32,000 nt of DNA from Candidatus Lokiarchaeum ossiferum (GCA_025839675.1 CP104013.1:1770001-1802000), one strand, 5' to 3'; positions 2,650 through 28,540 are shown, numbered from the stretch's first letter. Numbers and translations are program-made. Notes: generated by a model not told the origin, from the letters alone.

Positions 2650-4401
2650 ATGACTGAAATCGCAGCTGCAGATGATCTTAAGAGATTACGAGAAACCACA
2701 AATATCATCGAAAAGCTCATAATCATCCAAAGATTTGGATATTTAGACTCTTCTACAGTAATCTATCCAATATTAGAAGCAGTTTCTTTAGGTGAACAGG
2801 AGGTCATTGCACAAGCCACAGAATCACTTTTTAAATTAAAAAAATATCTTCTTCCATCCTTGAAATCAGAAATTACAAATCCCAATGCATTTATTAGATG
2901 GACTTTAACTCTAGTGATAAAAAAAATGAATGAACCTCGTTTTTTACCAATTCTGATTCCTGCATTGGGTTGTGGATATCGGCCAGTGGTAGAAATCATT
3001 TTGGAAACATTGAATCAATTAAATGCTGAAAGATTTCCGACAAAAAATCTCAAATCTGTTTTTCAAAACCTTTTACCAGATGAAAAAGAATCAGTTACAC
3101 ACTATGCAATTAGACAACTAGGAATTCTTGCATTGGACACAACAGAAACACTTTATGCTTTACAAAATTTGCATGATTTACGGTTTCCCAATGCGATTGT
3201 TCCCCTATTCAAAGTATTACATCATTCGGATTATAGAGTGAGAGATCAAGCAAGGAAAATACTAAATTCTTTTTCCAATGAAGAAAAATTGAAAATTTGT
3301 TTACAAACTATTAAGAACAAAGAGTTTTACAATGAAAACTATGATTTCCAACTTATCTCAGGAAGTAATTATCCTTTACATCTCTATGCAATTCAGGGGC
3401 TTGGATCTATTGGAAATGATACGGTAAATACGCGAAAAATATTATGGTCAATTTTGAGAGATGGAAATAAAGCAGAAAAAATCTTTGCACTGAAAGCTTT
3501 AGAACAACTACAAAAGAGTTCTAAAAACAAAATTCAAATCACCACTGAAATAAAAAATGAAATCACATCATTTCTGAACACACTTGAGGGCAAAAATAAG
3601 TTGATTGCAATTAAAACACTTGGAAGACTAGGAGAAGAATGGGCCACAACTACAATATCTTCACATTTAGACGATAAAGATCCTAAAATTCGTTTATCTG
3701 TAATAAATGCTTTAACAAATTCAAAACACCAAAACATAGTAGATAAAGTTGCGTATTTATTAATTGACAAAGACCGTCAGATTCGGCGGGCTACGGTACG
3801 CTTGTTTGAAGATTTAGACCGAGATTATTTTCAAATGCAAACAAGTGAAGGCAATGTTATTGACAAATTGCCAGAACCTATTAGAACGGAACTGTTAAAC
3901 AAACTTCTTGAAAAAATGCAGCATGAATCGGAAGATTACCAATGTTTTGCAACATTTTGGTTAGGTACATTAGGATACAAACCAGCGTATGATATTTTAA
4001 TAGGCAATCTTAAGAGTTCGTCAGAAAAATTGGTGTTAACCACCATTAATGCCTTGGGAATGCTTGGTTTAGCAAAAGCAATCCGTGAACTTATTCCATT
4101 TATATATTATATTAAAAATAACCAGATTCGGAAAAAAGCAATTGAAGTTATTGGTATGCTGGGAGAAGACAAGGAAGGACTTCACGCGTTAATCCATCAA
4201 CTTTTTTTACAAAAAGAAATCAATCCTCCATATTTAGAAGAACATATAATATCCTATGGAGCAGGAGTTATTCCCCTTCTTACTTTAGAAATTGAAAATG
4301 AATCTTCCATCCAGAGAAAAATTTTGCTCGAAAATTATTGTTCCAAAGTTAATGGTATGTATGAAGTTAAAAATAAACAAGATTTCAATATCTTATTATA
4401 A
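2650..4401 (+). CDS. HEAT/PBS-lyase-like repeat protein
   Basis: Repeated helical units carry the D/N-x-x-x-(V/I)R...A...L signature, e.g. HHSDYRVRDQARKILNSF, DDKDPKIRLSVINALTNS, LIDKDRQIRRATVRLFEDL, NNQIRKKAIEVIGMLG. No TM segment or signal peptide. Confidence 0.7.
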   Translation: MTEIAAADDLKRLRETTNIIEKLIIIQRFGYLDSSTVIYPILEAVSLGEQEVIAQATESLFKLKKYLLPSLKSEITNPNAFIRWTLTLVIKKMNEPRFLPILIPALGCGYRPVVEIILETLNQLNAERFPTKNLKSVFQNLLPDEKESVTHYAIRQLGILALDTTETLYALQNLHDLRFPNAIVPLFKVLHHSDYRVRDQARKILNSFSNEEKLKICLQTIKNKEFYNENYDFQLISGSNYPLHLYAIQGLGSIGNDTVNTRKILWSILRDGNKAEKIFALKALEQLQKSSKNKIQITTEIKNEITSFLNTLEGKNKLIAIKTLGRLGEEWATTTISSHLDDKDPKIRLSVINALTNSKHQNIVDKVAYLLIDKDRQIRRATVRLFEDLDRDYFQMQTSEGNVIDKLPEPIRTELLNKLLEKMQHESEDYQCFATFWLGTLGYKPAYDILIGNLKSSSEKLVLTTINALGMLGLAKAIRELIPFIYYIKNNQIRKKAIEVIGMLGEDKEGLHALIHQLFLQKEINPPYLEEHIISYGAGVIPLLTLEIENESSIQRKILLENYCSKVNGMYEVKNKQDFNILL

Positions 4402-4422
4402 AAATTGATCGGTCGAAAAACC

Positions 4423-5535
4423 ATGATGGTAAATTTGGAACGCTATTTTTTTCCTAGTTGGATGTTTATCTTCATTTCAGGAGTTTTGATTGCGTTCGAT
4501 AATATATCATCATTTTTTTTTATGATTTGTGTGCAATTATACTTAATTTCATTTGGATTTATTAACATTCATTATGCTTTTAATTCTCGGAAAAATGTAG
4601 AAAAGTCCCAATTTGAAGAATATTTTATCAATGAAATAATTACAGGAATATTATTTTTCTGCTTAGCAGTGTACTATCCATTTTTATTCACAGGTATTCC
4701 GTCAGAAATTAAATCACAATTTTATTTTCATCTGTGGGATTCACTAACAGTTCACCTTCTTTGTTGGAAAATATATTTATATTTTTCAAAAAAAAATAAT
4801 ATCAAAAAGAATCGTGGATTCCCGTATTCAATTTGGAAAATGATAATAATTGGGATGCACAATGAAGAGGATGATAGCAGACTCGATTTAAAAAGAAAAA
4901 TAATGCATTTTTTGACATCTGCTGGTGTAGTGGGGGCATATTTATTATCAGCTAAAGTAAATTCTTGGTTGTTGGGATTTGGACTAACTGGGGAATATAT
5001 TACAAGGTATATATGGGTTGTTTTCGGAATTCATTTAATCTGGATCATGAATATTCAAGATTTGATTCGTTTAACTCAATTTAATCGTTTAGGAAGATTT
5101 GCTACGCGATGGTTGGAAAATTCCATCCGACCAAAAGAATTGAATACTTTCACTTCTGCAGCGATAATGTTACTATCATGGCTTCCTTTTGTCTTAGCGC
5201 CATTCCAGGTAATGATGGCAGCAGCATTAATTGGAGCCAACTCTGATGCTATGGCCAGTATTTTGGGGAAGAGATTTGGTAAAAAAAAAATCAATTCATC
5301 AAAAAAAACATATGTTGGTTTAATTGCGGGAGGTTTATCGACTATTTTAATAATAAATATAACCCACATTATTCTTCCATTTCAAAATTTAAATATAATT
5401 CAAATCCAAATACTTTCCTTAATTACAGCAATTGCTTTTATGGGAATTGATTATTTTGTCAAAAATATTTCTGATAATTTTTTAAACCCGATCATTTGTG
5501 GTGGTATCATTTGGTTTTTCATGTCAATTTTTTAA
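4423..5535 (+). CDS. Polytopic membrane protein, CTP-dependent polyprenol kinase / cytidylyltransferase superfamily (dolichol- or phytol-kinase-like)
   Basis: The C-terminal motif SDAMASILGKRFGKKKINSSKKTYVGLIAGG (nt ~5242-5340) matches the GDxxAxxxG(K/R)(K/R)(F/Y)G...K(S/T)xxG signature of the dolichol kinase / phytol kinase / CDS family. Many hydrophobic helices. The ORF track starts at TTG 4405; the first ATG is at 4423. Confidence 0.55.
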   Translation: MMVNLERYFFPSWMFIFISGVLIAFDNISSFFFMICVQLYLISFGFINIHYAFNSRKNVEKSQFEEYFINEIITGILFFCLAVYYPFLFTGIPSEIKSQFYFHLWDSLTVHLLCWKIYLYFSKKNNIKKNRGFPYSIWKMIIIGMHNEEDDSRLDLKRKIMHFLTSAGVVGAYLLSAKVNSWLLGFGLTGEYITRYIWVVFGIHLIWIMNIQDLIRLTQFNRLGRFATRWLENSIRPKELNTFTSAAIMLLSWLPFVLAPFQVMMAAALIGANSDAMASILGKRFGKKKINSSKKTYVGLIAGGLSTILIINITHIILPFQNLNIIQIQILSLITAIAFMGIDYFVKNISDNFLNPIICGGIIWFFMSIF

Positions 5536-5647: not shown

Positions 5648-5932
5648 ATGTCAGTGGATTTTGAGCAGCAAATATACGGGGAAATAATGGATGCTTATTC
5701 CAAAAATGACCCCGAAACACTTTTCGAATATAAAGAGTTGATCAAATTAATGAGAATGAAAGGCGAATTTGATGGGTGTAAGGAAAATCAATTCAACTCA
5801 ATAATTACAAATTCAATTATTTTACTCATGGTACTATTTTTTCAAAAAAATACCTCAAATTTAGCGTATGAACAAAAATTGAATAACCACGAAAGAAAAA
5901 AAATAATACAGATTTTTGAAAAATTGATATAA
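5648..5932 (+). CDS. Hypothetical small protein (94 aa)
   Basis: Intact ORF with GGAGG at 5629-5633 upstream of the ATG. One hydrophobic stretch (IILLMVLFF). No recognisable motif. Confidence 0.4.
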   Translation: MSVDFEQQIYGEIMDAYSKNDPETLFEYKELIKLMRMKGEFDGCKENQFNSIITNSIILLMVLFFQKNTSNLAYEQKLNNHERKKIIQIFEKLI

Positions 5933-5994: not shown

Positions 5995-7164
5995 ATGACT
6001 GAATTAATTTTGTGTGAAAAATGTGGAGAAGAAGCCCACTTCAATGATACATACTGTGCATATTGTGGTGCGAATTTAAAAATCCAAAAAAATGCATGGA
6101 AAGCAATAAATGAGCCAAATAATACAACAAATTTAATATTAGATGGCCAGTTTTTAGAAGTGTATTATGATTTAACTGCTAAATTAAAAAATCTAGAAAA
6201 TATAGATCTTGGTTTTGACCAACATCAACAATATTTCAAACAGTTATCTATTGAATTACAAGCATCTCAGGAAAAATTGAATACATTCCACAATTTTACT
6301 GAAAAAGAATTAAAAGATGTGGAAGATCTTAAAAAAATTACTTGGAAAAGCATCAAAGCAGGAGTTAAAGGTAATAAAGATGACTTGTTAAAGAAAGAAG
6401 AAGCAGAATATTTAAACGCCTTAAATAGAGAAGAATCTTTAAAACAAGATATTCTTGAACTTCAAAAAAGGTATTCAATTGCAAAAACAGAAATGGAACA
6501 CCTTTCTAGGCTGAAAAAGCAAAAGTATGATTATAACATCCAATTAATACGCTTGATCGATCAGGTATGCGAAGGAGTTCCAGATCCTATTGAAGATAAA
6601 ATTGAAGCAGATTTGTTGCAGTTAAAAAATCAATTACAACCCATTTCAGCCGAACGTATAAATCTGAAGAATGCTCTGGGCCATATTAGTAATGCTCAAC
6701 AACATTTTCAATTCACATTGAATAAGCTTGGAAGTGCTAAAGGATTAAGTGATTGGGACACTTTTTTTGGAGGAGGATTTCTCGCCGATTCAATGAAGCA
6801 CTCTCGAATGGCGGAAGCTCGAAATGGAGTCCAACAAGCCCAAAGAAGTTTGAATCGCGCCTATCAACTGGTTCCATCTCTACCCAAAATTCGCGGAGCA
6901 CAAGTAGAAGAAATGAATATGTTCTGGGACACATTTTTTGATAACATTTTTAGTGATCTCAATGCCCGAGAAAAAATTATTAGATCTCGCCATTCTGTAG
7001 AACAAGCATTTTATGAAACTCAGCAAGCATCCCAATGGTTAAACTCCCGAATAGTTGAGAAACAACAGATATTCCAAGGTATAAATTCCAAAATTCAAAG
7101 CAAAAGGCAAGATCTTATCAGAGAAAGAAAACGAATGATAGAAAACGCATTGAAACAACAATAA
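5995..7164 (+). CDS. N-terminal zinc-ribbon protein with long coiled-coil region; function unknown
   Basis: CEKCGEEAHFNDTYCAYCG is a C-x2-C-x10-C-x2-C ribbon at residues ~7-25. About 200 aa of heptad-like K/E/L/Q-rich sequence follows. The C-terminal region carries GGGFLADSM...WDTFFDNIFSDL. Confidence 0.7.
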   Translation: MTELILCEKCGEEAHFNDTYCAYCGANLKIQKNAWKAINEPNNTTNLILDGQFLEVYYDLTAKLKNLENIDLGFDQHQQYFKQLSIELQASQEKLNTFHNFTEKELKDVEDLKKITWKSIKAGVKGNKDDLLKKEEAEYLNALNREESLKQDILELQKRYSIAKTEMEHLSRLKKQKYDYNIQLIRLIDQVCEGVPDPIEDKIEADLLQLKNQLQPISAERINLKNALGHISNAQQHFQFTLNKLGSAKGLSDWDTFFGGGFLADSMKHSRMAEARNGVQQAQRSLNRAYQLVPSLPKIRGAQVEEMNMFWDTFFDNIFSDLNAREKIIRSRHSVEQAFYETQQASQWLNSRIVEKQQIFQGINSKIQSKRQDLIRERKRMIENALKQQ

Positions 7165-7181
7165 TTTTTTTGTCCAATGAA

Positions 7182-7256
7182 GATCCAGAGGGATCGGCCG
7201 GAATCCGACCGATCCGATGTCAGGATCAAACGAGATTTGACTCGCCAGTCAAATTC
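7182..7256 (+). other. GC-rich island with two hairpins (candidate small structured RNA or terminator structure)
   Basis: Hairpin 1: GGATCGG (7191-7197) pairs with CCGATCC (7209-7215). Hairpin 2: ATTTGACT (7235-7242) pairs with AGTCAAAT (7247-7254) around a CGCC loop. The island lies 18 nt after the stop of the upstream CDS and is embedded in very AT-rich DNA. Confidence 0.3.
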
Positions 7257-7625
7257 TCAAACAATTGGTGGCATGTTAATTACAGTCGGCTTTGTATTAA
7301 TATTTGAGTAATTGGAATTATTTTAAGTTTAATTTCTTGCCGTGATTTTTTCTATTTATAGTTGATTTTTGGAAAATTTCTCTAATTTTACAACAACTTT
7401 GAAAATATCATCCATCTTATTAATAACAATCAAAAATTAAACTAGCACAACAGCTAAATTATTCAATAGGATGAATTATATCGCATGCACCCAAATATTT
7501 TTCATTTTGTTGAAGTAATTTTATTTTAAACAGATAAAAAACGAATATTTTACTTTTCTATGATTTATCTAAGAAAGGCAAGATAAAATGTATTAAACAA
7601 ACGAGAAAATATAATTTACTGGTGG

Positions 7626-7659
7626 AAAGGATCAATAACAAGAAAATTATTGATCCTTT
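7626..7659. repeat. Perfect 13-bp inverted repeat (hairpin) with 8-nt spacer
   Basis: AAAGGATCAATAA (7626-7638) / caagaaaa / TTATTGATCCTTT (7647-7659), followed by TT. Confidence 0.6.
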
Positions 7660-8013
7660 TTGTCAGGATTTTGTAAAAACAGAGTTTCTACAAGAACAAA
7701 TGGTGGCAAGATAATGAAGTTTCTCTTCGTATTTATTTCTGGGTTTTTCCAAAAATTCCAAGTTAATTTCTTACCCCGAAAAGAAACATATTAATAATTG
7801 GGGTTTAAAAAAGTATCTCAAATTTATTAGTTCATTAAAAAGCGGACTAACGCTAAAAAATAGTCTTGAATAATACTTATTAGGAAAAAAGACCACCATA
7901 TAATTAATAAAAAATTGCTCAATCAATCACAGCAATTCTTAAAAAGGGCAAAAAATAAATGCATTTGAATAGTATATTTTCGATTAACAAATAAAAATTG
8001 GAGATTTTAAAAT

Positions 8014-9003
8014 TTGATCTTAGCAGTTCCATGGGCGTCTGGGGGATTTTTCTTTATTATTTGGACAGGTTTCTTTTTAGGGGTTTTACATACAATTATG
8101 CCCTGTGAAGATAAGTTTGTATTTTGTTTCTATGCTTTTGGAGTTGCCAGAGATTGGAAACAAGCATTTCGCATAGTAAATTTTTATGGAGCGGGACTGT
8201 TTATAATGAATTTAATATTGGGAACCATCATTACATGGTTTTCAAAAATTCTTGTTGAAACTTTTTCGAATATAGAACCTGCAATTTGGAATTACTTGGT
8301 GGCATTCAGTTTAACGTTAAGTGGAATCATTATGATGTATCAAATTCGAAAGAAAACTTATTGGCCTCATTCCGATCAATTCCAAGAATTAACTGAAAGT
8401 ATTAGTACCTTAAGAGCCAAAAAAAGAACAGCATTGTTATTGGGATTATTAGCAGGTATTCCACCATGCATCTTTGAATTAGGTGTCTATTTTGAAGCAG
8501 CTTTCTTAGCTGGAAATTATGGATGGGGAAATGGAGTATGGATTATCTTTTTCTTTGGAATTGGGACATGGTTAGGGTTATATCCACTGGTTTTCATAGG
8601 AACAATGAGTGGAAAATTGTCAAAATCAATGAAAAGCTCATCTATTCAACGATTGCAGCAAAAAATTAAAAATAAGATTCGAAGACAAAAAAAAGTCGTT
8701 GATGAAGAACCTGAAGATATTCTTGAAAAAGATGAAATATCAAGTTACTCAAAGTTAGAATATTTCAGTGCTTGGAGCTTAATTGGTATTGGGGGAGTTT
8801 TTCTGCTTTTTGGAATTTTCAAGGTGGAATTAGTACCCGCTGAAGATGTAACCCATGTTCCATGGCCTTTTAATGATGATACTTTGAATATTTTCTGGAT
8901 TATTTTTTTCTCCCTTATAGGATTGATCATCGTGTTAATTTTTCTAACCCTATGGTCCAAAAATAAAAAATATGTCAAAAGTATTGAAACTAATAACAAA
9001 TGA
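8014..9003 (+). CDS. Polytopic membrane protein, function unknown (paired transmembrane Pro-Cys motifs)
   Basis: TTG start at 8014 preceded by GGAG at 8000-8003 (10-nt spacer). At least six hydrophobic helices. Motifs LHTIMPCEDK and GIPPCIFELG. K/R/E-rich loop (QQKIKNKIRRQKKVVDEEPED). No confident family assignment. Confidence 0.6.
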   Translation: MILAVPWASGGFFFIIWTGFFLGVLHTIMPCEDKFVFCFYAFGVARDWKQAFRIVNFYGAGLFIMNLILGTIITWFSKILVETFSNIEPAIWNYLVAFSLTLSGIIMMYQIRKKTYWPHSDQFQELTESISTLRAKKRTALLLGLLAGIPPCIFELGVYFEAAFLAGNYGWGNGVWIIFFFGIGTWLGLYPLVFIGTMSGKLSKSMKSSSIQRLQQKIKNKIRRQKKVVDEEPEDILEKDEISSYSKLEYFSAWSLIGIGGVFLLFGIFKVELVPAEDVTHVPWPFNDDTLNIFWIIFFSLIGLIIVLIFLTLWSKNKKYVKSIETNNK

Positions 9004-9109
9004 GGATTCTACCAATTTTTTTTTATTTTATTCCAATATTGAGTCTATCGCAATTCCTATGACAAAAATTTTAACCCTAAGGATGCTAAATTAAATTAGG
9101 TGTTATATC

Positions 9110-9832
9110 TTGGGAATTCGTGAAATTGAAGATCGAGCAAAAATGCGGGATTTGATGAAAAAAAAAGCCGCAGAATTGAGAATGCATCGTTTAGCAACTC
9201 AAACGGCAACAACGAAGATGACTAAAGAAAAACTCGCAGAAATCGCCAAAAAACATGGTGTAATTGTTGCGTTAGATCCTGAGATGAAGGAAATCATCGA
9301 AGAAATTCGGAAAAAATATAATATTCCAAAAGAACGAATTATTCGGGAAGAAATTACTGAAGAATCTGTTTTGAAAAAGGGCAAAAAAGTTGACATTAAA
9401 AAATTAGCGATGCTGTCCTATCAACGTGTAATGTTGGAAAAACAAGAAACAGGAGGATTATTGACTCTACCTGATGTTTTTGACATGATTAATACGGGAA
9501 GTCTTAAAAATAGAATCACCATGGATGATACAGAAAAAGCAGTAAAAATATTGAAGAAAGATAAGGTGATCCCTGAAATTAAAAAACTCCCAAGTGGAAT
9601 ACTAGCTATTTCATTTTTCCCTGTTCAATATACAAAGGATCAGACTTCAATCTTAGAACTAGTCACAGAAGATGGAGTTATCACCACAGGGGATGTTTGT
9701 AAGGCACTTAATTGGACAGTTGAAAGAGCAGAACGCGCTTTGCAAAATTTGGTTGACACTCGAGTAGCTCGAATTACCGAAACTTTTAGAACTGGAAAGA
9801 AATATTTCTTCCCAAGTTTGAAAACGAAATAA
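9110..9832 (+). CDS. ESCRT-II subunit, Vps22/Vps36-like (EAP30 domain, tandem winged helix)
   Basis: TTG start with AGGTG at 9098-9102 (7-nt spacer). It aligns by eye with human SNF8/EAP30: TGGLLTLPDVF vs NGGLITLEEL; KALNWTVERAERALQNLV vs ASLKWETERARQVLEHLL; KKYFFPSL vs AHYWLPAL. The N-terminal basic helix KKKAAELRMHRL resembles SNF8 KKKLAEAKYKER. Confidence 0.85.
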   Translation: MGIREIEDRAKMRDLMKKKAAELRMHRLATQTATTKMTKEKLAEIAKKHGVIVALDPEMKEIIEEIRKKYNIPKERIIREEITEESVLKKGKKVDIKKLAMLSYQRVMLEKQETGGLLTLPDVFDMINTGSLKNRITMDDTEKAVKILKKDKVIPEIKKLPSGILAISFFPVQYTKDQTSILELVTEDGVITTGDVCKALNWTVERAERALQNLVDTRVARITETFRTGKKYFFPSLKTK

Positions 9833-9867
9833 AAAAAAGACATTATTACAAACTTCTTGAGATTTTT

Positions 9868-10749
9868 TTAAACAATTTTAAATTTTATTCCAAATTGGTT
9901 ATCGTCAAGTTCGACCACAGTTCCTTTATGGTTTTGCTCAATTTTACCAAAAATAATCTTAAGATCTTCTTCTGGTAAGTTGGAAAATTCTGTTTCTGAA
10001 TTGCGAATATCTGGAACCATAACCATATCAAAAATTGCATTATTTTTTGCCCAATCTTCGATTAAAGTGGTCCACTCTTCAATAGATTTCCAATAGACTC
10101 GAAGTTCTTCTTTTTTCTTTGGTTTATCGCCAACCCACTTTGCTAAATCTTTATCTATTAGAGCTTCCGCTAGGATAGAAATGGCTTTCTTTCTATCAAT
10201 GAATTTATTAAAGGGTTTTTCGGTTAATAAGCGTTTAGGATAAATGATATGGATAAGTCCAACATGAGCATAATCAAGTAATACTTGTGACCACTCTTCT
10301 CGCCATGATTCAAAATCCTGCTTGTTTTTCTTCTTATTAGGTGTTGAATACATAAATCCATATTGAGGTGCTTCAATCCAATCATGTATTTCTAACAATT
10401 TTTCATAAGGAGATTTAACCTTCACCTTTGCTTCTACCGCAACTTCTTGTTCAAGAGCAGCCATTTCGGCTGCAATTGAAGCATCATTGGTGGAAACTTC
10501 TAAAAGAATTTCTCCTTTGGTAGCCCCTTTAATCCCCTGTTGAATGGAAGATTCTAAATCATCAAGACCATCCACTTCAGAACCAGAATCTATTGATTCA
10601 GATTCTAAAGAATTCAATTGTGATTGAAGAGCTTCTAATTTCTGAAGTTTTTCGAGTTTAGCTAATTTCTCTTTCTTTTTTTTTTCTTCATTTATAGATT
10701 TAGATTTCTGTGATGCCTTCGGGCGTTGTTGTTCCGCGATATTTATCAC
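9868..10749 (-). CDS. vps25: ESCRT-II subunit Vps25-like with ~115-aa N-terminal coiled-coil/acidic extension
   Basis: The C-terminal ~175 aa align by eye with eukaryotic Vps25: [22 protein letters not shown] vs LIMWRRPEEWGKLIYQWVSRSG; [23 protein letters not shown] vs EFHGLDEATLLRALQALQQEHKA; the terminal GIKFK vs GVKFF. The GTG start overlaps the vps4 stop (GTGA at 10746-10749). Confidence 0.8.
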
Positions 10750-11963
10750 CCTCCGAATTCTTCAGTCCATTCTGCAAATTTTTGGAGCTCTTCTTCTGAC
10801 ACAACCGGTTTTATCTTTTGAATTACATTCAAGAAATCCTGTTGAGAAATGGGGCGAACTTTTAGCGAATCATCCCCTTCACCTAATTGACCTGCTACAT
10901 CTAATTCTCGAACAGGTAACATTACGACTTCACGGCATATGGTGGCGATATCTGATCCAGAATAGGTATCAGTTAATTCTCCTAAAGCATCGAAATCTAC
11001 TGTTTCATCCATTTCAATTTCTTTGGTGCATAATTGGAAAATTTTTGCTCGTCCTTCTTGCGTTGGAGGACCTACATAGATTTTTTTTTCAAATCGACGT
11101 AATACAGCACTATCAATAGACCAAGGAAGGTTCGTTGCCGCCATAAGGGTAACAATTTTATCTCCCGTACTTTTTACCCCTTGCATTTCTTGTAATATCT
11201 GGGTTTTCAAACGTCGTTCTCCGCCCCCTTCATTACCAGTTCCCCGTTTTCCTGCAATACTATCAATTTCATCCATGAAAATTAAGGAAGGAGCGTCCAA
11301 ACGAGCAACTTTAAAAAGCGTTTTTAATAGTTTTTCCGATTCCCCTAACCACTTGCTTACTAAGCTAGCCGAATCTGCAGCAAAAAATTGAACACCACAT
11401 TCATTCGCCGCGGCTTTTGCCAATAATGTTTTTCCACATCCGGGTGGACCAAATAATAATATCCCACGCCAAGGTTTTCGAGCACCCCTAAACAATTCAG
11501 GATGTGCCATTGGTAATACAACCGCTTCTCGGATCGCCTGTTTTGGATCCTCCATACCAGCCACATCACCCCAAGTCACTGTGGGTCTCTCAGTAACGAT
11601 TGTTCCTTCAATGGTTTTTCGTAATTCTTTTTCATCATCAGACATCTCGCTCTCTTCTTCTGAATCTTCAGAATCATCTTTTTTAGAATGATGACTATCT
11701 TTCTTTGGAGATCTGCCAGTGGGAACTTTTTCCTTCTTTTTGCGGTTAGTTAACTGATCCGCACGTTTAAAATATTGTAAGGCTTTTTCTTGTGCAAGAG
11801 CTTTAAGTTTAGAATTTTTACAAAATTTAGCGAAATCATTCAACGTTTCGCTGGCTTGCAAATATTTATCTGCAGCTGCATCATATTGTTTGCCTTGATC
11901 AAGCTGAATTGCTTCATTCGCAAGCTTAATAGCGGCATTGAAAATTGCGTTATCATTAGCCAT
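10746..11963 (-). CDS. vps4: Vps4-type AAA+ ATPase (N-terminal MIT domain + single AAA cassette)
   Basis: MIT-like helices: [31 protein letters not shown]. Walker A GPPGCGKT at nt 11430-11450. Walker [12 protein letters not shown] region [16 protein letters not shown]. Start chosen at ATG 11963, which has GGAG at 11973-11976 and a TATA-like ATATATAC at ~12003-12010 upstream. The longest ORF extends to a TTG at 12062. Confidence 0.9.
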
Positions 11964-12180
11964 GGGTTTAAACTCCAAGGGATCATTAGGATCCATTTCT
12001 TGGTATATATGTGTTATAGTTTTTTTAGTCTTTAAAATGCTTTTTAGTCTTATGATCTCCAATTTTTAGCATTCTGATTTCCATCCATTATATCAAGAAT
12101 CGGGTTATAATTTGAAAAGTTACTTTTTTCTCGGTAAAAGGGTATAAAATTCTTTTAAGGGATAAATTCCGACCAAAATT

Positions 12181-13979: not shown

Positions 13980-14243
13980 TTGGAAACCGTATTCAAACAG
14001 AGCTCTTTAGATCATTCAATCTTAATTAAACGAAGAAATCAAATTCAAACCGTGATGAAGCAAGTAGACGGACACTACATCTACAAAGATGGGTTAAATT
14101 TCAATTTCCTATATTCACTTTATTCGCAGAAATTAGAATACCTACTAAATGGAATCGATAAAATCGCAGACAATGAGTTTCAAGAAAAGGTATCCATGTT
14201 AAACCGATCTGTGAAAGAAATACATAAGTATGTTATTAAATAA
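13980..14243 (+). CDS. Hypothetical small protein (87 aa)
   Basis: TTG start preceded by GAGGGG with a 6-nt spacer. T9 run downstream at 14307-14315. No motif recognised. Confidence 0.4.
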   Translation: METVFKQSSLDHSILIKRRNQIQTVMKQVDGHYIYKDGLNFNFLYSLYSQKLEYLLNGIDKIADNEFQEKVSMLNRSVKEIHKYVIK

Positions 14244-19535: not shown

Positions 19536-22500
19536 TTAAGAACGTTTAGATTTTCGAATTAACAACGCTGCTGCACCTAAAGAGGCAAAGATAAGTGCCC
19601 CCACAGCAAAGCCTGGAACACCACCTTCTTCTTCAGTGGTTGTTGTTTCAGTTTCAGTTTCGGTGCATGTTTCAGTAATGGTCACAGTAGGTGGAGTATA
19701 ATCACGATGAAGATACACTAGATCAATTTCATCCCCTTTTGGAACCATTCCATATACACCATCAAAGCAAACTGTCAAATAGAACTGAATTTCAGATGTT
19801 CCACCATAACCATCAATAACTTCAATTCTAATTGTATAATTCCCATCAGCTAAGCCTAAAGAACTATCTCCATAGATGGTTAGAGCAACATCTCCAACAA
19901 CCCAATCTCCACTTCCAACTTCAATATCATTTGCATAGATTGTATAATTTGCGTCTGCGATGCTTAAATCTGCAACATTGAATACTGCAGAAATATTTGT
20001 TGTAGATGCAATGAGTTCAAATCCACTTAATACAGGTGCATAATTGACCACATCAATATCTACTGTTTCTGAAGCAGAATATCCAAATTCATCATCAGCA
20101 ATAAGTTCAAATTCATATGTTCCAATGGCAGTTCCTGTGAAATCATAGGATACTAAATCTTCGAAATCACCAGTATCTACTTCAACACCATCTTGGAGTA
20201 AAGTATAATTACCACTTTTACATGTATCTGAAACATCAAACAATAAAGAGATTGTATCAGTTTGTTCTACTTCGGAATCTCCAATAAATTCAATAACAGG
20301 AGCAGAAGTATCATATAAGAACTTAGTAGATACAGTATGATCGAAGTTCCATCCAGCAGTTGAAGTGGTTACTAAATAGGTTCCTTCAGATACACCAGCA
20401 GCTTCAAGATCAAAATTCATGAGATCTCCTGGATCTACATTTGCAGTATATACTACATCTCCTAATACTGAGAAGGAAAGATAATACTCTACATCTGCTG
20501 GACCACTAGGATTATCAAACCATTCTATAACAATTTCATATAATCCAGTTGATGGAATAACTCCTTCAAAGTGTTCCGGTTTAGCACCAGTAGCAGATTG
20601 TCCAAATATATCAGAATCGAAATCATAAGGATCGCCCGCTCTGATAATTAATAGGTCAAAATCAGAATCATCTGACCAATCGAGTTCACCAACTGCATAG
20701 TCACCTTCATTTAGGAAAACAGTATAAGATGCTTCAATGGTCATTCCTCCAGCATACGCAACCAAATCTTCAGCCAACAATAATTCAGATTCTTCAAGAA
20801 CAACTGCAGATGTAATTTGCATAGTGTTGTTGTATGCATCATTTCCAAAGGCTGGAATTGCATTATCATCAACTACACTCCAATTCGCTGTGAAGTTGCT
20901 ATTTGTGATCATTACTCCCATAGGAGTCTCTACCATACCTGGAGTTGAGAAATCAACAGTTGGAACTGCAAAATCAGAAACAGATTCATTAGTCCAAGCA
21001 ACCTTCAATGAGAAGTTTTCCAAAGGTAATGTTTCAGCAACAGGGTCTAAATCTGTGGCATGAACAATTAGAGTAAACTGATCAAATCCATAACCCGTTG
21101 TTACATTTTCAGCCCATCCACCATAGAAGTAATTGCTTGAAGCATTTTCATAGTAATTATAAATATCTATGAGTAATCTTTGTTTAGTCTCTCCAGCATT
21201 TTCTGTTGAAATATAATGCCCACCAGCTGTGAAATAGTCGGTTTCACCAATAACATAACCTTCATGGTCTACAACCCACATATTCATCTCAGAACCAGCA
21301 TTAACCCACTCTAATTCGAGTAACATGGATTTAACATCTGAACGATTTGTGTATCCATCTAAAACAATATCATAGAATCGCCAATCTCCAGTTTCTGGAC
21401 GCCAATCGTAATCAGCACATCCATACAATCCATTGTCATTTGGTCTACCAGTTAATTGTCCATCACTTACAATTGTCCATCCATCTGCTTCGTATCCAGT
21501 TACATTTGCAGCGATAGTATAACCATAAGGAACAAGCATTTGATTATAATCTGTTGTGTTGAATATAACATATCCTTCATACATCCCAGGTACTGCATCT
21601 GTTTCAATATCAATGGTCACTTCATACTCACCGCCAGATGTTTCTACTACGGAAACACGACTATCATCAGTACGAGTAAAAGCTCGGACACTTAATGAGA
21701 AGTTTTGACCACTCCAAGGATAATACAATCCATGATCACACATATGATTGAAACCAGGATCTCTGATTCTTACAAACGCAGGATCTTCAGAAGCCTGAAG
21801 GAAATCAGTAGGTAAGAATAAATCTTGGAAATTATTGTTGTCATATGCATAGTTCACAAATGCAAAATCTTCTTCGCCAGAAATATTTGATTCTAAAGCC
21901 CCGACGTACATAATCGGAGGACGACCACCAAAAGTATCTCGGTAAAACTCTCCAACTTCATAGGGTACTGAAAATTCTAATTGGAAGTAATCAGCAGATC
22001 GTAATTGAGCAATATCAAATAGAGCTTCTATTGAGAAAGCAGAATAATAGTCATACGTCCTCAAATTTTCAACTACAGCAGTATAAGTGGTATCAAATGT
22101 AACATCTGCAAAATCAGCACCAGTTACGCCACCATCTAAGGTGACCGTTGAGGTGTAGGATTCTTCAGGGAATAAAGTACCACCGTAGATTGCGGTATCC
22201 TTCATTGTATAAGGTCCAAATAAAGGATGTTCATCAGTATCACTAGTTGTATTTATTATGTCTGCACGGCTATCCCAATAATAGAGTCCACCATCTATAT
22301 CTCGTCTAAACCAAGATGATGAATTAAAGTATCGGTGATAAGGAACTTCATAACGTTGGGCAGCAGTGGCGGTTGCATCAGTAGTATAGGCAACTAATAT
22401 ATCACTACTAGTTCCATCTGCATATTGAACTCCAGCAGAAACATTAATTCGTCCGGTCCCTTGCATATATGGATCATATCCAAAATCGTCAGCAGTACTT

Positions 22501-24674
22501 TTCATAATAGCCTTAGCCATGTCTGGATCTAAAGATTCTCCAGGATGCGCTGAAGCCCATGCTTGATAAATCAAAGCCATTCCACCTGCAAGGGCAGGAC
22601 ATGATGCGGAAGTTCCACCGAAAACATGATAGAAATATGGATTACCTACTGTAATTGGATTCAAACTCCAATCGAAGGCTCCAGGTGCGAGAATATCAAT
22701 TTTAGGATATCCTATATTTGATGGACCGTTATCACTCCATCCAATGACTTGATCAGCTATACCATAGCTTGCATTCCATTCTGTTGAAGTATTTCTCCAC
22801 CAATTTACGGTTGAAGCACCAACTGCAACAGCTGCGGTAGATTGACTTGGTTGTTTGCTTGTACCCATACCAGAACCTCCATTACCGGTTGAAGTTAAGT
22901 AGAGTACTCCAGGATAATCCGGATGCAAGAAGCCAGGAACAGATAGTAAATCAATAAACAAGGTTTCAAAATCCCAACCCATAGCAACATCATTTACTTC
23001 AACAGCACTGGTTCCCCAACTGTTTGAACTTATGTTAGCAATATGAGTGCTTTGAGGATTGAATGCCCAAATTCCATTAGCATCAGGTTCAAATCCTGCT
23101 GCCCATAACCATCCAAAAGTAGTTGCAGAATCGGAAAATCCAGCAGTAGCTAAAATTTTAGCTTCAGTTGACATTCCACCTATTGTGAACGTTTCATCAG
23201 ATGGTAAATCTTCATTTTCTAATAAAGTGTAATTAATTGGAGCACTTGCAGCTAATCCTGCACAACCTGTTCCATGACCACCAGTATCCCACAAGTGAGC
23301 AAGGGTTTTTCCATCTGCTGGGATACCAGTTACAATACCTCCACCAGTGTAATTATTTGTATCTAAAACGTTTGCAATTGATCCTAAAGAGATATCTGTA
23401 TATCCATCTAAAACACCATAATCTGTTGTATTCCATACGTCTTTGGATAATGCAAGATTTGCATTGTTTTTATGGGCAACTTGGCCAGTGAAATTAAACG
23501 GAGCGAGATCATACCATGAAGAATCACCAGTCAAGAACCCTTGTGTAATACAAAATCCGGATTCATAATCAACGTACAATGTGTCATAATCTCCATCATC
23601 GTCATCATCAGCTTCGATAAATGGTGTTATAGAAATAGTCCCGTCATTGTGAATTACACTCATTCCGAATGCAAAGCCAGTTACATTTCCATTGATTCCA
23701 GTTCCTACTGTATAAGTAGCAGGCATATTGAATCCAGTTCCATCAAATAATTGCCAGATTGGATTATAAAAACCGATATCTGGTGCATTTACAGGTAAGT
23801 TGTTGTATCCAGCTAAATAAATTGTTCCATTTTCGTCTGTATGTTTTGGTGAAAACCATCCATCCAATAACTCATAGGTACCATCACCAGGAGTAAAAAT
23901 ATCACCCCAAAAGTCCATAGCATTCAATGCAGTGAAAGACATACGACCGCTTGGTTCCAATGAAAGAGGATAACCATTTTCATCGACAGCCATTTGATTG
24001 CGTAAAGCAGTATGACCAAAATCAACGCCAGTATCATGAATTTGGATAACAATACCATCTCCATCATATCCAAGATCTTCAGCATCATCTACACTCATTA
24101 CTTCACGTGTTTCCACCGAATGAGGTTGAACAATGCCAGACTCATAATTTTCCATTGGTAGGAATTCGTCTGCTACATCAACATTTATATATTTCAAATC
24201 CTGAATATCTGCGTTTTTATCATAGGATGGCCCATAAAATTGGTCCGCTTCAATTTTTAAAACAGCAGGATTTGCTTGTAATTCTTCCATTTCCCGTAAA
24301 TTATCGACTGTAGTATGTACAAAACTATAGCCAGGGGATAATGGAACTATACCCAAAGGTTCGATTGTGCCACCTAAAGTGAAATCATCACCATAGACCA
24401 TAAGCATAAGACTTATTTCATCATTGATGATGTTCATAGATGCAGGTAGCTCATTTGTCTCTTTCCACTCAGAAAGAAAACCATCCAATTTTACATTAGA
24501 TCGATCGAATTTTGGAGTGTCATTAAATAACTCCGGTTGAGTTATACTCGATTTTTCAGTATCATTAGTTGTCATATTCAAAGAGATGACCATTGGCAAT
24601 ATAAATAATGTCAATGCGAAAACAACCAATGCTGGATTTCGAGCATTAGAGAATGAGAAATTTTTTACCTTCAT
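19536..24674 (-). CDS. Giant secreted subtilisin-like (S8) serine protease with C-terminal beta-sandwich repeats and PGF-CTERM anchor
   Basis: AGGAG lies 8 nt upstream of ATG 24674. Signal/anchor helix ALVVFALTLFILPMVISL. Catalytic triad contexts: IHDTGVD (Asp codon 24033-24035), GGHGTGCAG (His 23274-23276), GGTSASCPALAG (Ser 22608-22610). Thr/Glu linker and PGFAVGALIFASLGAAALLIRKSKRS at the C-terminus. Confidence 0.9.
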   Translation of the reverse strand: MKVKNFSFSNARNPALVVFALTLFILPMVISLNMTTNDTEKSSITQPELFNDTPKFDRSNVKLDGFLSEWKETNELPASMNIINDEISLMLMVYGDDFTLGGTIEPLGIVPLSPGYSFVHTTVDNLREMEELQANPAVLKIEADQFYGPSYDKNADIQDLKYINVDVADEFLPMENYESGIVQPHSVETREVMSVDDAEDLGYDGDGIVIQIHDTGVDFGHTALRNQMAVDENGYPLSLEPSGRMSFTALNAMDFWGDIFTPGDGTYELLDGWFSPKHTDENGTIYLAGYNNLPVNAPDIGFYNPIWQLFDGTGFNMPATYTVGTGINGNVTGFAFGMSVIHNDGTISITPFIEADDDDDGDYDTLYVDYESGFCITQGFLTGDSSWYDLAPFNFTGQVAHKNNANLALSKDVWNTTDYGVLDGYTDISLGSIANVLDTNNYTGGGIVTGIPADGKTLAHLWDTGGHGTGCAGLAASAPINYTLLENEDLPSDETFTIGGMSTEAKILATAGFSDSATTFGWLWAAGFEPDANGIWAFNPQSTHIANISSNSWGTSAVEVNDVAMGWDFETLFIDLLSVPGFLHPDYPGVLYLTSTGNGGSGMGTSKQPSQSTAAVAVGASTVNWWRNTSTEWNASYGIADQVIGWSDNGPSNIGYPKIDILAPGAFDWSLNPITVGNPYFYHVFGGTSASCPALAGGMALIYQAWASAHPGESLDPDMAKAIMKSTADDFGYDPYMQGTGRINVSAGVQYADGTSSDILVAYTTDATATAAQRYEVPYHRYFNSSSWFRRDIDGGLYYWDSRADIINTTSDTDEHPLFGPYTMKDTAIYGGTLFPEESYTSTVTLDGGVTGADFADVTFDTTYTAVVENLRTYDYYSAFSIEALFDIAQLRSADYFQLEFSVPYEVGEFYRDTFGGRPPIMYVGALESNISGEEDFAFVNYAYDNNNFQDLFLPTDFLQASEDPAFVRIRDPGFNHMCDHGLYYPWSGQNFSLSVRAFTRTDDSRVSVVETSGGEYEVTIDIETDAVPGMYEGYVIFNTTDYNQMLVPYGYTIAANVTGYEADGWTIVSDGQLTGRPNDNGLYGCADYDWRPETGDWRFYDIVLDGYTNRSDVKSMLLELEWVNAGSEMNMWVVDHEGYVIGETDYFTAGGHYISTENAGETKQRLLIDIYNYYENASSNYFYGGWAENVTTGYGFDQFTLIVHATDLDPVAETLPLENFSLKVAWTNESVSDFAVPTVDFSTPGMVETPMGVMITNSNFTANWSVVDDNAIPAFGNDAYNNTMQITSAVVLEESELLLAEDLVAYAGGMTIEASYTVFLNEGDYAVGELDWSDDSDFDLLIIRAGDPYDFDSDIFGQSATGAKPEHFEGVIPSTGLYEIVIEWFDNPSGPADVEYYLSFSVLGDVVYTANVDPGDLMNFDLEAAGVSEGTYLVTTSTAGWNFDHTVSTKFLYDTSAPVIEFIGDSEVEQTDTISLLFDVSDTCKSGNYTLLQDGVEVDTGDFEDLVSYDFTGTAIGTYEFELIADDEFGYSASETVDIDVVNYAPVLSGFELIASTTNISAVFNVADLSIADANYTIYANDIEVGSGDWVVGDVALTIYGDSSLGLADGNYTIRIEVIDGYGGTSEIQFYLTVCFDGVYGMVPKGDEIDLVYLHRDYTPPTVTITETCTETETETTTTEEEGGVPGFAVGALIFASLGAAALLIRKSKRS

Positions 24675-24905
24675 ATTTATTCTCCTAATTTAATATATTG
24701 CGTTGAATTTCCATTTAAGCCTTGCCAAAAAAGAGATAGTATTAAATAACCTATGGCCCAGAATTGAAAAACATCTTGGGGAAGAGTATGGGAAAAAACA
24801 GAAATGGTGTTTATCAAGGGAATGCATCAAAATTAAAAAATATCAACCGTTCAAGATAAAACTATTTTTTACAGAAACGATGGAAAAAAAAAGCAATATA
24901 GATTA

Positions 24906-25484
24906 TCAATTTTGGAAAAATTTCCGACGTTCTGACCGTCGAAAGATAGATGTAATTATTAAAACTTTTAAAATCCGAATAACATCAATATATTTAAGAT
25001 CTTTAATCTGCCAGACAATTTGCTGAAAATCATAGGATAGATTCATATTTTTAATTCTTTCATAGACCAGAAGGGCTTGATCCGTCAAATCTTTAAGATT
25101 CTCCAATTGGGTAATCTGTAAATGAGGTTGATAAAATTTTACATCTTGAATATATGTCGTGATCAACTTATTTATTCCAGTTTCAATTATGGATTTTAAT
25201 TGATTCCCAACTTCTTTTGTATTTATCTGATGCAAACTGGATCCTTGGATTCGACTAAATTGCATTTGCATAGACATGCCCAGCGATTCAATCTCTAAAG
25301 AAAGTCGTTCGATTAAATTCCCGTGAAGATAATCTTTAGCAACCTTATCCCCAGAATTAGCTCGTTTTTTCAAAAAAATCTCTGAGATATCGGTTGGGCT
25401 CATTGCAAGTTTAAAAAAGAAATAGAAAATTAAAAAAATTTGGATTTCCCCGATAATAACGCTTTTTCGGCGAGTCCACCACAT
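24906..25484 (-). CDS. Hypothetical protein (192 aa; may start at internal ATG 25403)
   Basis: ORF lies 22 nt downstream of the MFS gene on the same strand. Hydrophobic N-terminal segment, then a helical region. No motif recognised. Confidence 0.4.
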   Translation of the reverse strand: MWWTRRKSVIIGEIQIFLIFYFFFKLAMSPTDISEIFLKKRANSGDKVAKDYLHGNLIERLSLEIESLGMSMQMQFSRIQGSSLHQINTKEVGNQLKSIIETGINKLITTYIQDVKFYQPHLQITQLENLKDLTDQALLVYERIKNMNLSYDFQQIVWQIKDLKYIDVIRILKVLIITSIFRRSERRKFFQN

Positions 25485-27053: not shown

Positions 27054-27710
27054 TTAATTTTTTCGACTTTCTTTGAGTTTCTTAATTTCTTCTTCAAGAT
27101 CTTCTATTTGTGCTTCAGGTTCATCAGAAATAGGAACGGAAGGTAATGCCATCACTGAATCCATACTCATTTCGGTGTCAATTTCGGCTAAAGCATTTTC
27201 CACTTCTGAATCGGACACTTCAGTCTCCGATGTCGCCCCTTCACTTTGCTCTAACTGAGAAGTAGTGGTATCCATCATCGCATCCATGCTTCCAAATCCA
27301 AGATCCATTTCTTTTAACATTTTGACCATTTCAGGCATTTTAACATTTAATTGAAGACCTTGCAAAGTGCCCACAATATCTTCTGCGACTTCATTAAATT
27401 GCCCCATTACCTTCGCTTGTTGCAATCGAAACTGAATGTTTTCAATTTTCATTCGAAAATGTTCTGTAGAATGACCCCATTTTCGGTATTGTAAGGAATT
27501 TTTCATATGAAGCTTGGAGCCAGCTATATCACCCGATTTACGAGCATCTATAGCCCGTTTTTTGGCCATTTTTTCTTGAACTTCGATTTTCCTGATTTGA
27601 CGGGCAAGACGTTTATTAAAAACTTTTATTTTAATTAGGGGGGAGGTAGTCTGTTCTTCATCACTAAACCCTCCGGAGAGCCATTCGGCAAATTTTTTCA
27701 TTGAACCCAA
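27054..27710 (-). CDS. ESCRT-III subunit, Vps2/24/46 (CHMP1-3)-like, paralog A
   Basis: 218 aa of Snf7-fold helical hairpin sequence. LQLNVKMPEMVKMLKEMD resembles CHMP2A LKLPQIQKIMMEFE. SDSEVENALAEIDTEMSMDSVMALPS resembles CHMP2A SDAVVSQVLDELGLSLTDELSNLPS. C-terminal MIM1-like helix IEDLEEEIKKLKESR. The start codon is TTG (27708-27710). Confidence 0.85.
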   Translation of the reverse strand: MGSMKKFAEWLSGGFSDEEQTTSPLIKIKVFNKRLARQIRKIEVQEKMAKKRAIDARKSGDIAGSKLHMKNSLQYRKWGHSTEHFRMKIENIQFRLQQAKVMGQFNEVAEDIVGTLQGLQLNVKMPEMVKMLKEMDLGFGSMDAMMDTTTSQLEQSEGATSETEVSDSEVENALAEIDTEMSMDSVMALPSVPISDEPEAQIEDLEEEIKKLKESRKN

Positions 27711-27883: not shown

Positions 27884-28540
27884 ATGGGTAGTATGAAAAA
27901 ATTCGCTAAATGGCTATCAGGTGACCGAAATAAGCGTGGAGTAGATCCTGTGCGTTCTACCATCACCAGCCTAAAAATATTTAATAAACGATTACAACGA
28001 CAAATACGTAAAATGGAACAGCAACAGAAACTTGCTCGAAAAAAAGCCATTGAACGGCGACAAGCAGGAGATATTCCTGGTAGTAAATTACATATGAAAA
28101 GTTCCCTTCAATTTCAAAAATGGACCCATAATACAGAAAATTTCCGTGTACGATTGGATGGAGTTCAATTCCGATTAGAACAAGCCAAAGCGATGGGAGA
28201 TTTTAGTAATGTTGCTCAAGATATAGTTTCAGCTTTAGGAGGCTTACAAATGCAAGTTAAAGCACCTCAAATTTCACAAATGTTAAGCCAATTGGATCTT
28301 GGTTTCGGGAATATGGAAGCCATGTTTTCCGAAACAAGTGAAGAGTTGGAAATGCAGGATGATGCAAGTGCAAGTGGTGTATCTGAAGATGAAGTGGAAA
28401 ATGCACTTGCCGAAGTGGACGCTGAGCTCTCAATTGGTACCCGTGAAGCCCTACCTTCAGTTCCAGGCATGGCCCCTGGTGAAGAAATCAGTGATCTTGA
28501 AAAGGAAATTCAACGTTTAAAAAATTCCCGAAATCAATAG
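27884..28540 (+). CDS. ESCRT-III subunit, Vps2/24/46 (CHMP1-3)-like, paralog B
   Basis: 218 aa, roughly half of residues identical to paralog A by eye. Shared blocks: MGSMKKFA, FNKRL, RQIRK, GSKLHMK, VQFRLEQAK, DLGFG, VENALAE, ALPSVP. C-terminal MIM1-like helix ISDLEKEIQRLKNSR. Confidence 0.85.
   Translation: MGSMKKFAKWLSGDRNKRGVDPVRSTITSLKIFNKRLQRQIRKMEQQQKLARKKAIERRQAGDIPGSKLHMKSSLQFQKWTHNTENFRVRLDGVQFRLEQAKAMGDFSNVAQDIVSALGGLQMQVKAPQISQMLSQLDLGFGNMEAMFSETSEELEMQDDASASGVSEDEVENALAEVDAELSIGTREALPSVPGMAPGEEISDLEKEIQRLKNSRNQ

Follow-up and report, generated by a model that had tools for sequence, protein, structure and literature searches.

An ESCRT-II and Vps4 gene cluster in the cultured Asgard archaeon Candidatus Lokiarchaeum ossiferum

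The vps22, vps25 and vps4 genes and their products

[quoted passage not shown] Family membership, folds, catalytic motifs, gene order and conservation carry this reading. A search of the window for open reading frames (ORFs), combined with a Pfam scan in which each domain match was judged against its curated gathering cut-off, returned the same three ORFs as the first-pass annotation, namely 9110-9832 (+, 240 amino acids, aa), 9868-10749 (-, 293 aa) and 10746-12062 (-, 438 aa). With 100% identity, the Vps22-like and Vps25 proteins correspond to NEF87_001464 and NEF87_001465 from Ca. Lokiarchaeum ossiferum, which places the window in the genome published for this cultured Asgard archaeon (PMC9834061). 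The Asgard lineage, which had been proposed from the ESCRT-II genes, is also that of the relatives: with the Vps22 protein as query, a profile-guided GTDB scan that took a single genome for each species gave 143 of them, and the best 80 loci, in which ORFs were called and then queried with the window proteins, all belong to Asgard archaea or archaeal metagenome-assembled genomes (MAGs) with the same synteny. Additional loci were read from gene tables carrying precomputed Pfam matches; L-numbers below denote relatives' loci. The features of the cluster are as follows.

9110-9832, plus strand: vps22-like gene for an ESCRT-II subunit of the EAP30 family; 240 aa, TTG start
9833-9867, between the convergent genes: intergenic spacer of 35 bp, with oligo-T runs on both strands
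9868-10749, minus strand: vps25, ESCRT-II subunit; 293 aa, GTG start overlapping the vps4 stop
10746-11963, minus strand: vps4, AAA ATPase with a MIT domain; most likely 405 aa from the ATG at 11963
11996 or 12062, minus strand: alternative vps4 starts from annotation and ORF reading, giving 416 aa (GenBank) or 438 aa (longest ORF)
11964-12180, between divergent genes: region separating vps4 (-) from a transaldolase-family gene (+), with TATA-like boxes and a 22-bp direct repeat

The identification of the products as SNF8, Vps25 and Vps4 homologues held up, as Pfam matches above the cut-offs, profile comparisons with the PDB, and structure prediction followed by fold searches agree. Profiles built from 42 homologues of the Vps22-like protein and 39 of Vps25 were run against the PDB, AlphaFold2 models were compared with solved structures by Foldseek, and Vps4 was compared with the PDB by phmmer.

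The product of 9110-9832 matches EAP30 (PF04157) with 48.4 bits against a cut-off of 26.8, over aa 2-217 and profile positions 2-212 of 219. Its profile finds human SNF8/Vps22 (2e-15) and yeast Vps22 (8.5e-9) ahead of Vps36 (4.9e-6), and the best Foldseek matches of its model are human Vps22 (3cuq_A, 1.8e-8; 2zme_A) and yeast Vps22 (1u5t_A), followed by Vps36. The model has three helices (3-35, 39-49 and 57-69) forming an N-terminal helical region at aa 3-69, and two winged-helix units of the helix-helix-helix-strand-strand type at approximately 96-168 and 176-233, so that the tandem winged-helix fold expected for this protein is seen in the prediction. Pfam detects neither a GLUE/PH nor any other extra domain within the 240 aa. 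The label "Vps22/36-like" can thus be narrowed to its first half, since by sequence and predicted fold the product is Vps22-like rather than Vps36-like, and Hatano et al. 2022 likewise placed the Asgard EAP30 protein nearer to Vps22 (PMC9192718). The TTG start is preceded at 7 nt by AGGTG, and the homologues begin with MGIR.

Vps25 matches Pfam ESCRT-II/Vps25 (PF05871) with 39.4 bits against a cut-off of 27 (aa 141-244). Against the PDB its profile gave 9uyv, an "ESCRT-II complex subunit" (8.7e-95, the chain matching profile positions 99-295 only), Odin Vps25 7pb9 (2.2e-36), human Vps25 (8.5e-10) and yeast Vps25 (1.2e-7). The AlphaFold2 model also bears out the tandem winged-helix fold proposed for this protein, with a core at aa ~112-293 (predicted local distance difference test, pLDDT, >90) whose first Foldseek match is 7pb9 (E 1.5e-11, template modelling (TM) score 0.84, root-mean-square deviation 2.3 A), ahead of yeast and human Vps25. 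The 7pb9 chain, of 173-179 residues, corresponds to the winged-helix core of the window protein alone (profile positions 124-292). Unlike eukaryotic Vps25, the window protein carries ahead of the core, at aa 1-~111, an N-terminal helical extension of ~110-130 aa, for which AlphaFold2 predicts three helices at low confidence (20-51, 63-74 and 89-106). The extension is an already published feature, and the preprint on MK-D1 terms it unstructured (bioRxiv 10.1101/2025.11.01.685982). It is kept in 38 of 38 aligned homologues, including all Lokiarchaeial ones, with the conserved segments "AExxR" at the N-terminus, a K/L-rich heptad-like helix, "LxxLExxIxxxIxxATKGE" and "ELxxLExEI"; because this three-helix region is conserved with invariant-like motifs, the extension does not appear to be simply disordered. 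When 1.84 billion representative proteins were scanned, the core was found to begin at residue ~100-185 in the closest relatives, ~45-100 in more distant ones and ~20-35 in the most distant. At the start of the core a further conserved segment (aa 127-137, with M133 and P137 invariant) is placed much as are the N-terminal PPXY motifs by which eukaryotic Vps25 contacts Vps22 and Vps36, and is not PPXY itself; such motifs are at most degenerate in the window protein ("APQYGFMY").

The third protein has four Pfam matches above their cut-offs: MIT with 44.4 bits (cut-off 30), AAA with 131.5 (21.2), AAA_lid_3 with 33.9 (27.2) and, for the C-terminal oligomerisation helix, Vps4_C with 45.4 (21.3). 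The MIT domain lies at aa 43-105 of the 438-aa ORF and is followed by a single AAA cassette with Walker A GPPGCGKT (205-212), pore loop KWLG (237-240), Walker B DEID (264-267), sensor-1 ATN (309-311) and arginine fingers RR (322-323); the Walker A and B, pore-loop, sensor-1 and RR residues are invariant in an alignment of four Lokiarchaeial sequences. VPS4B aligns from its own residue 1 in a single stretch covering both MIT and AAA (aa 34-390, 313 bits), and yeast Vps4 scores 299 bits. The highest phmmer totals against the PDB nevertheless belong to Cdc48/p97, which is due solely to the matching of both its AAA domains, at about 177-184 bits each. An assignment of the ATPase to Cdc48 or PAN was considered and ruled out by the MIT and Vps4_C domains and by the per-domain scores. 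Neither of the two outcomes that the first-pass annotation had named as refuting it was thus seen. Among NCBIfam models, CdvC (NF041006) is the best, with 282.8 bits, ahead of CDC48 and PAN; the equivalog cut-off is 650, and the protein is thus not a CdvC equivalog.

The cluster had been taken to extend to 12062, which is the start of the longest ORF; translation of vps4 probably begins at either 11963 or 11996. In homologues the first residues are "MANDNAIF" (aa 34), which corresponds to the ATG at 11963, and GGAG stands 9 nt upstream, for which reasons we favor this codon. Public annotation is divided, with 405 aa in RefSeq and 416 aa in GenBank, where vps4 (UYP45181.1, Ca. Lokiarchaeum sp. 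B-35) is named "Cell division protein C" and both ESCRT-II genes are labelled "hypothetical protein".

Compared with eukaryotic ESCRT-II (yeast 1u5t and 1w7p; human EAP30/EAP45/EAP20, 3cuq and 2zme), the window proteins share the tandem winged-helix cores and the N-terminal helical region of Vps22, and profiles and folds match directly, whereas sequence identity is only 14-20% and no Vps36 bearing a GLUE/PH domain is found in the window. The ESCRT-II of Odin- and Heimdallarchaea has the same single-Vps22 architecture.

Gene order and the detached ESCRT-III genes

The first-pass annotation was right about the adjacency of the three genes, although they do not share a strand: vps22 (+) converges on the vps4-vps25 pair (-). 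The vps4 stop and the vps25 GTG start overlap in GTGA, which implies a bicistronic and translationally coupled arrangement in which vps4 and vps25 would form one operon and vps22 would be transcribed separately. On the plus strand the 35-bp spacer has a T7 run immediately ahead of 9867; an A8 run at 9833-9840 is equivalent to T8 on the minus strand. The spacer is probably a bidirectional archaeal terminator. On the other side of the pair, 11964-12180 is a putative promoter region, with TATAAT/TTATAA-like matches at 12116-12087, upstream of the likely vps4 start; these come from a sigma-70 promoter and terminator scan that is meaningless for an archaeon and served solely to locate TATA-like strings. 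Between these boxes and 11963 lie two copies of a 22-bp direct repeat (12040-12083, TRF score 58) followed by a third, partial copy, AAGACTAAAAA in the minus-strand reading, and this repeat possibly serves regulation within the promoter or leader of vps4-vps25.

The convergent layout, with vps25 next to vps22 and vps4 behind it, recurs in 71 of the 80 species-representative loci, and the trio is an intact canonical Asgard unit. Published Lokiarchaeial clusters (Lokiarchaeum GC14_75 and MK-D1) hold the same three proteins in the same convergent order (PMC9192718, PMC11188069, bioRxiv 10.1101/2025.11.01.685982). The position of ESCRT-III is what departs from most Asgard loci. Adjacency could be judged in 63 of the best 80 loci, those with enough sequence beyond vps4; a Snf7 gene lies within 1 kb of vps4 and divergent from it in 58, and 4.3 kb away in one. 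No such gene occurs within 5.9-7.8 kb in the other four, which are the closest relatives of the window (73-82% Vps22 identity, the 82% being that of MK-D1): Promethearchaeum syntrophicum MK-D1, another Promethearchaeum, Harpocratesius repetitus and a MAG. The Harpocratesius-like loci L001 and L003 have no Snf7 gene at the locus. In the window itself two genes of the Snf7 family are found, both well away from vps4.

27054-27710, minus strand: ESCRT-III paralogue 1, Snf7 family, Vps2/24/46-type by motif and best matches; 218 aa, Snf7 31.8 bits against a cut-off of 27.3
27884-28540, plus strand: ESCRT-III paralogue 2, Snf7 family, Vps2/24/46-type by motif and best matches; 218 aa, Snf7 47.1 bits against the same cut-off of 27.3

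These two divergent paralogues are 54% identical and lie about 15-16 kb from vps4, in agreement with the ~15 kb given for ESCRT-III by the first-pass annotation. The best PDB match of 27054-27710 is CHMP1B (3.4e-8); for 27884-28540 Heimdall ESCRT-IIIB (1.1e-6) is marginally better than CHMP1B (7.5e-6). Their C-terminal peptides are EISDLEKEIQRLKNSR and IEDLEEEIKKLKESRK, and the motifs "DLEKEIQRLK" and "DLEEEIKKLK", the latter in 27054-27710, fit the Leu/Ile-rich helix resembling the MIT-interacting motif MIM1 that was described by Lu et al. for Asgard Vps2/24/46 proteins (PMC7240154). The class of both proteins was assigned solely by this motif and the best matches. The MK-D1 preprint reports one CHMP4-like and two CHMP1-like proteins (bioRxiv 10.1101/2025.11.01.685982).

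Both paralogues align collinearly, at 37-40% identity, with the Snf7 proteins encoded beside vps4 in L004, L085 and L086, and 27884-28540 is, judged by sequence, the orthologue of the ESCRT-III gene that stands directly upstream of vps4 in most Asgard genomes. In L. ossiferum this gene is ~16 kb off, with its relative orientation unchanged, and duplicated. Because an ESCRT-III gene adjoins vps4 in most loci and is absent from that position in this clade, an ancestral four-gene unit appears to have been split between vps4 and ESCRT-III, and the detachment characterises the clade as a whole rather than L. ossiferum by itself.

The description of the system as fragmented is therefore correct as regards ESCRT-III, and does not apply to the canonical trio or to the distance from ESCRT-I and ubiquitin genes, which is normal here. 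No Vps28, UEV, steadiness-box or ubiquitin gene is detectable by Pfam in the window, in keeping with what had been noted beside the cluster. Seven neighbors (4405-5535, 5648-5932, 5995-7164, 13980-14243, 24906-25484, 24703-25026 and 19536-24674) rescanned at E<=1 gave no Pfam match to Vps28, UEV, Vps23_core, Mod_r or ubiquitin. Lokiarchaeia normally lack such genes next to the cluster: in the published Lokiarchaeial cluster they are likewise not adjacent, Hatano et al. described ubiquitin and ESCRT genes as occupying two separate regions of the genome (PMC9192718), and L004, L085 and L086, which keep the four-gene unit with Snf7, show neither Vps28 nor UEV nor ubiquitin in the surrounding ±10 kb. 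Hel- and Heimdallarchaeal genomes differ from the window in having ubiquitin and ESCRT-I, -II and -III genes in one cluster (PMC9192718).

Neighboring genes

Upstream of vps22, the gene at 5995-7164 (+) encodes a protein of 389 aa in which a zinc ribbon at the N-terminus is followed by a long coiled coil and by a conserved C-terminal region with the motifs "WDTFFGGG..DS.KHS" and "FFWD.FFDNIFSD". Since this outline resembles the Asgard ESCRT-I candidate Znr_PH_CC_SB of Makarova et al. (PMC11188069), it was examined as a possible ESCRT-I component, and no evidence for this was obtained: a 36-sequence profile gave coiled-coil noise against the PDB and the zinc ribbon only against Pfam, with no steadiness-box, PH or Vps23/28/37 similarity. 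The protein belongs to a family of ~385 aa found across Asgard lineages, with homologues of ~300 aa in Firmicutes (Proteiniclasticum, Sporosarcina and Solibacillus), and adjoins the vps22 region only in the closest relatives. The preceding 94-aa ORF (5648-5932) has a homologue in L009 only and is unrelated to the 74-aa genes beside the zinc-ribbon gene in L001 and L003. Further upstream, 2650-4401 (+) and 4405-5535 (+) encode a HEAT-repeat protein of 583 aa and a multi-pass membrane protein of 376 aa with no confident family match; the pair is kept upstream of vps22 in MK-D1 (L006), L007 and L009.

Between the zinc-ribbon gene and the next one lie 850 bp of gene-free, AT-rich DNA (7165-8013), within which a GC-rich segment just past the 5995-7164 stop (7182-7258, +) contains two stable hairpins, GGATCGG...CCGATCC and GAGATTTGACT...AGTCAAATTCTC. 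For 7165-7300 the folding energy is -41.3 kcal/mol, with z -2.86 relative to shuffles. Searches for Rfam families and tRNAs were negative throughout the window, 7165-8013 included, and the hairpins may represent a terminator, a small RNA or what is left of a mobile element.

Adjoining vps22, 8014-9003 (+) encodes a polytopic membrane protein that is DsbD_2/CcdA-like and has a long loop rich in K/E. This gene stands beside vps22 in 12 related loci (L001, L003, L005-L011, L013, L057 and L061), co-directionally upstream in the Lokiarchaeum/MK-D1/Harpocratesius clade and convergently downstream in a sister group without adjacent vps25-vps4. A role as functional partner of vps22 is not claimed, as the adjacency is confined to the two clades nearest the window, and the arrangement is probably inherited synteny with an inversion, along with the S8 peptidase gene. 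The latter, at 19536-24674 (-), encodes a 1712-aa secreted-type subtilase (Peptidase_S8), homologues of which (1672-1764 aa, with DUF4350) lie a few genes from vps22 in L001, L003 and L061; its place in the window is beyond the ESCRT genes, on the other side, suggesting a local rearrangement. In L061 (Asgard MAG Zod_Metabat.1044, 7790-11565), genes for an Arf-family small GTPase and a weakly Yip1-like membrane protein precede vps22, DsbD_2 and the 1672-aa S8 peptidase follow it, and vps25 and vps4 are not adjacent; that locus clusters several trafficking-type eukaryotic signature proteins.

Proposed function and significance

For the way in which the three proteins would work together, namely the stoichiometry of the complex, its interactions and the cellular process, we draw on eukaryotic ESCRT and on the biochemistry of other Asgard proteins. 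Vps22, probably as a homodimer taking the place of the eukaryotic Vps22-Vps36 stalk, would bind two Vps25 subunits to give a Y-shaped ESCRT-II, and the C-terminal winged helix of Vps25 would nucleate ESCRT-III filaments on the membrane. A hexameric Vps4 would then bind the C-terminal MIM helices of ESCRT-III through its MIT domain and unfold and recycle the subunits with ATP, leading to membrane remodelling or scission. The conserved adjacency of the genes, together with published two-hybrid and biochemical work on other Asgard proteins, is the support for the proposed Vps22-Vps25 complex and for the proposed binding of a Vps20-like ESCRT-III by Vps25. By analogy, the processes served may be vesicle or protrusion budding, protrusion dynamics, division, repair, or the sorting of ubiquitinated cargo. 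Heimdall Vps22 homodimerises, and in yeast two-hybrid assays with Loki proteins Vps25 binds ESCRT-IIIB and Vps22 interacts with itself (PMC9192718); Asgard Vps4 complements a yeast vps4 deletion (PMC7240154); and the ESCRT-II, ESCRT-III and VPS4 proteins of MK-D1, whose VPS25 has been crystallised, are recruited to ESCRT sites in human cells (bioRxiv 10.1101/2025.11.01.685982).

Several points weigh against this picture. The model of the EAP30 protein is of moderate confidence (pLDDT 72.6) and has a TM score of about 0.5 to Vps22, which is explained by different domain orientations. The Vps4_C profile is matched at positions 22-61 only, which suggests a reduced beta-domain; an insertion of human VPS4 that is missing from the archaeal protein was also noted in the MK-D1 preprint (bioRxiv 10.1101/2025.11.01.685982). 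A Vps20/32/60-like ESCRT-III, the expected partner of Vps25, is not found within the window, whose ESCRT-III genes are both Vps2/24/46-like, and the physiological process in L. ossiferum rests on analogy. Finally, the same preprint describes, besides VPS22 and VPS25, a separate VPS36-like protein with an N-terminal oligonucleotide/oligosaccharide-binding (OB) fold, so that the stalk might be a heterodimer.

This last point leads to the alternative that survives best. A stalk made of Vps22 and a Vps36-like partner, joined to Vps25, with the second EAP30 paralogue encoded elsewhere in the genome, is a possibility to be taken seriously, albeit less probable than the homodimer. Besides the MK-D1 protein, it can appeal to the monomeric state of Odin Vps22 in vitro (PMC9192718). 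However, a single EAP30 gene occurs within the window, and Hatano et al. could find no full-length Vps36 among the genomes of Asgard archaea, the self-interaction of Loki Vps22 also arguing for the homodimer (PMC9192718).

It is unlikely that the locus encodes a Cdv-like division machine, as in Sulfolobales, instead of a sorting or budding ESCRT, with Vps4 acting as CdvC and the winged-helix proteins as division-site adaptors. Division in TACK archaea is performed by ESCRT-III and Vps4, as is well established (PMC11188069), the TACK Cdv system (CdvA/CdvB/CdvC) shares a MIT-AAA ATPase and ESCRT-III-family proteins with the window, and both the top NCBIfam model and the GenBank name of the ATPase agree with such a role. 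Yet the CdvC score falls far under its equivalog cut-off, no CdvA is detectable in the window, Cdv systems are without ESCRT-II subunits, and the C-terminus of the window ESCRT-III proteins is MIM1-like, not winged-helix or MIM2. Moreover, Asgard Vps4 and ESCRT-III were reported to group with the eukaryotic and not the TACK proteins, and Asgard Vps4 complements the yeast vps4 deletion better than its crenarchaeal and bathyarchaeal homologues (PMC7240154). A division role need not exclude an ESCRT one, given that abscission too is carried out by ESCRT in eukaryotes.

That the two small proteins are winged-helix transcription regulators resembling ESCRT-II by chance, and the ATPase a generic AAA protein (Cdc48/PAN), can be dismissed: weak secondary matches of the EAP30 protein to HTH_24 and HTH_Mga (E about 0.03) and the phmmer totals of Cdc48, with both AAA domains counted, are in its favor, but the HTH matches fall under their own cut-offs whereas the family-specific Pfam models exceed theirs, Vps22 and Vps25 specifically head the structural and profile matches, the ATPase has MIT and Vps4_C and scores 313 bits with VPS4B in one stretch as opposed to about 180 per Cdc48 domain, and across Asgard genomes the synteny of the genes with Snf7 is strict.

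Within the ESCRT-II plus Vps4 reading, one may speculate that the broken vps4-ESCRT-III adjacency, the ESCRT-III duplication and the conserved Vps25 extension together mark a lineage-specific rewiring of the coupling between ESCRT-II and ESCRT-III, a proposal that we consider improbable. A steadiness-box-like N-terminus of Vps25 could, for instance, link directly to partners that are ESCRT-I-like or belong to the membrane, and this might have to do with the long protrusions that these cultured Asgard archaea extend from their membranes.

The genes, their families, the gene order and the Vps25 extension were already known for Asgard archaea, including MK-D1, having been described since 2015, with structures and biochemistry following in 2020-2025; no new biology is therefore added by their identification here. 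A small practical value lies in the GenBank labels of the L. ossiferum genes, which are still "hypothetical protein" for ESCRT-II and "Cell division protein C" for vps4, and the survey adds that the detachment of ESCRT-III from vps4 is clade-wide. As the host is one of very few cultured Asgard organisms, the locus is in principle experimentally accessible, and ESCRT-II is among the clearest eukaryotic signature systems in Asgard archaea, bearing on the origin of eukaryotic membrane trafficking.

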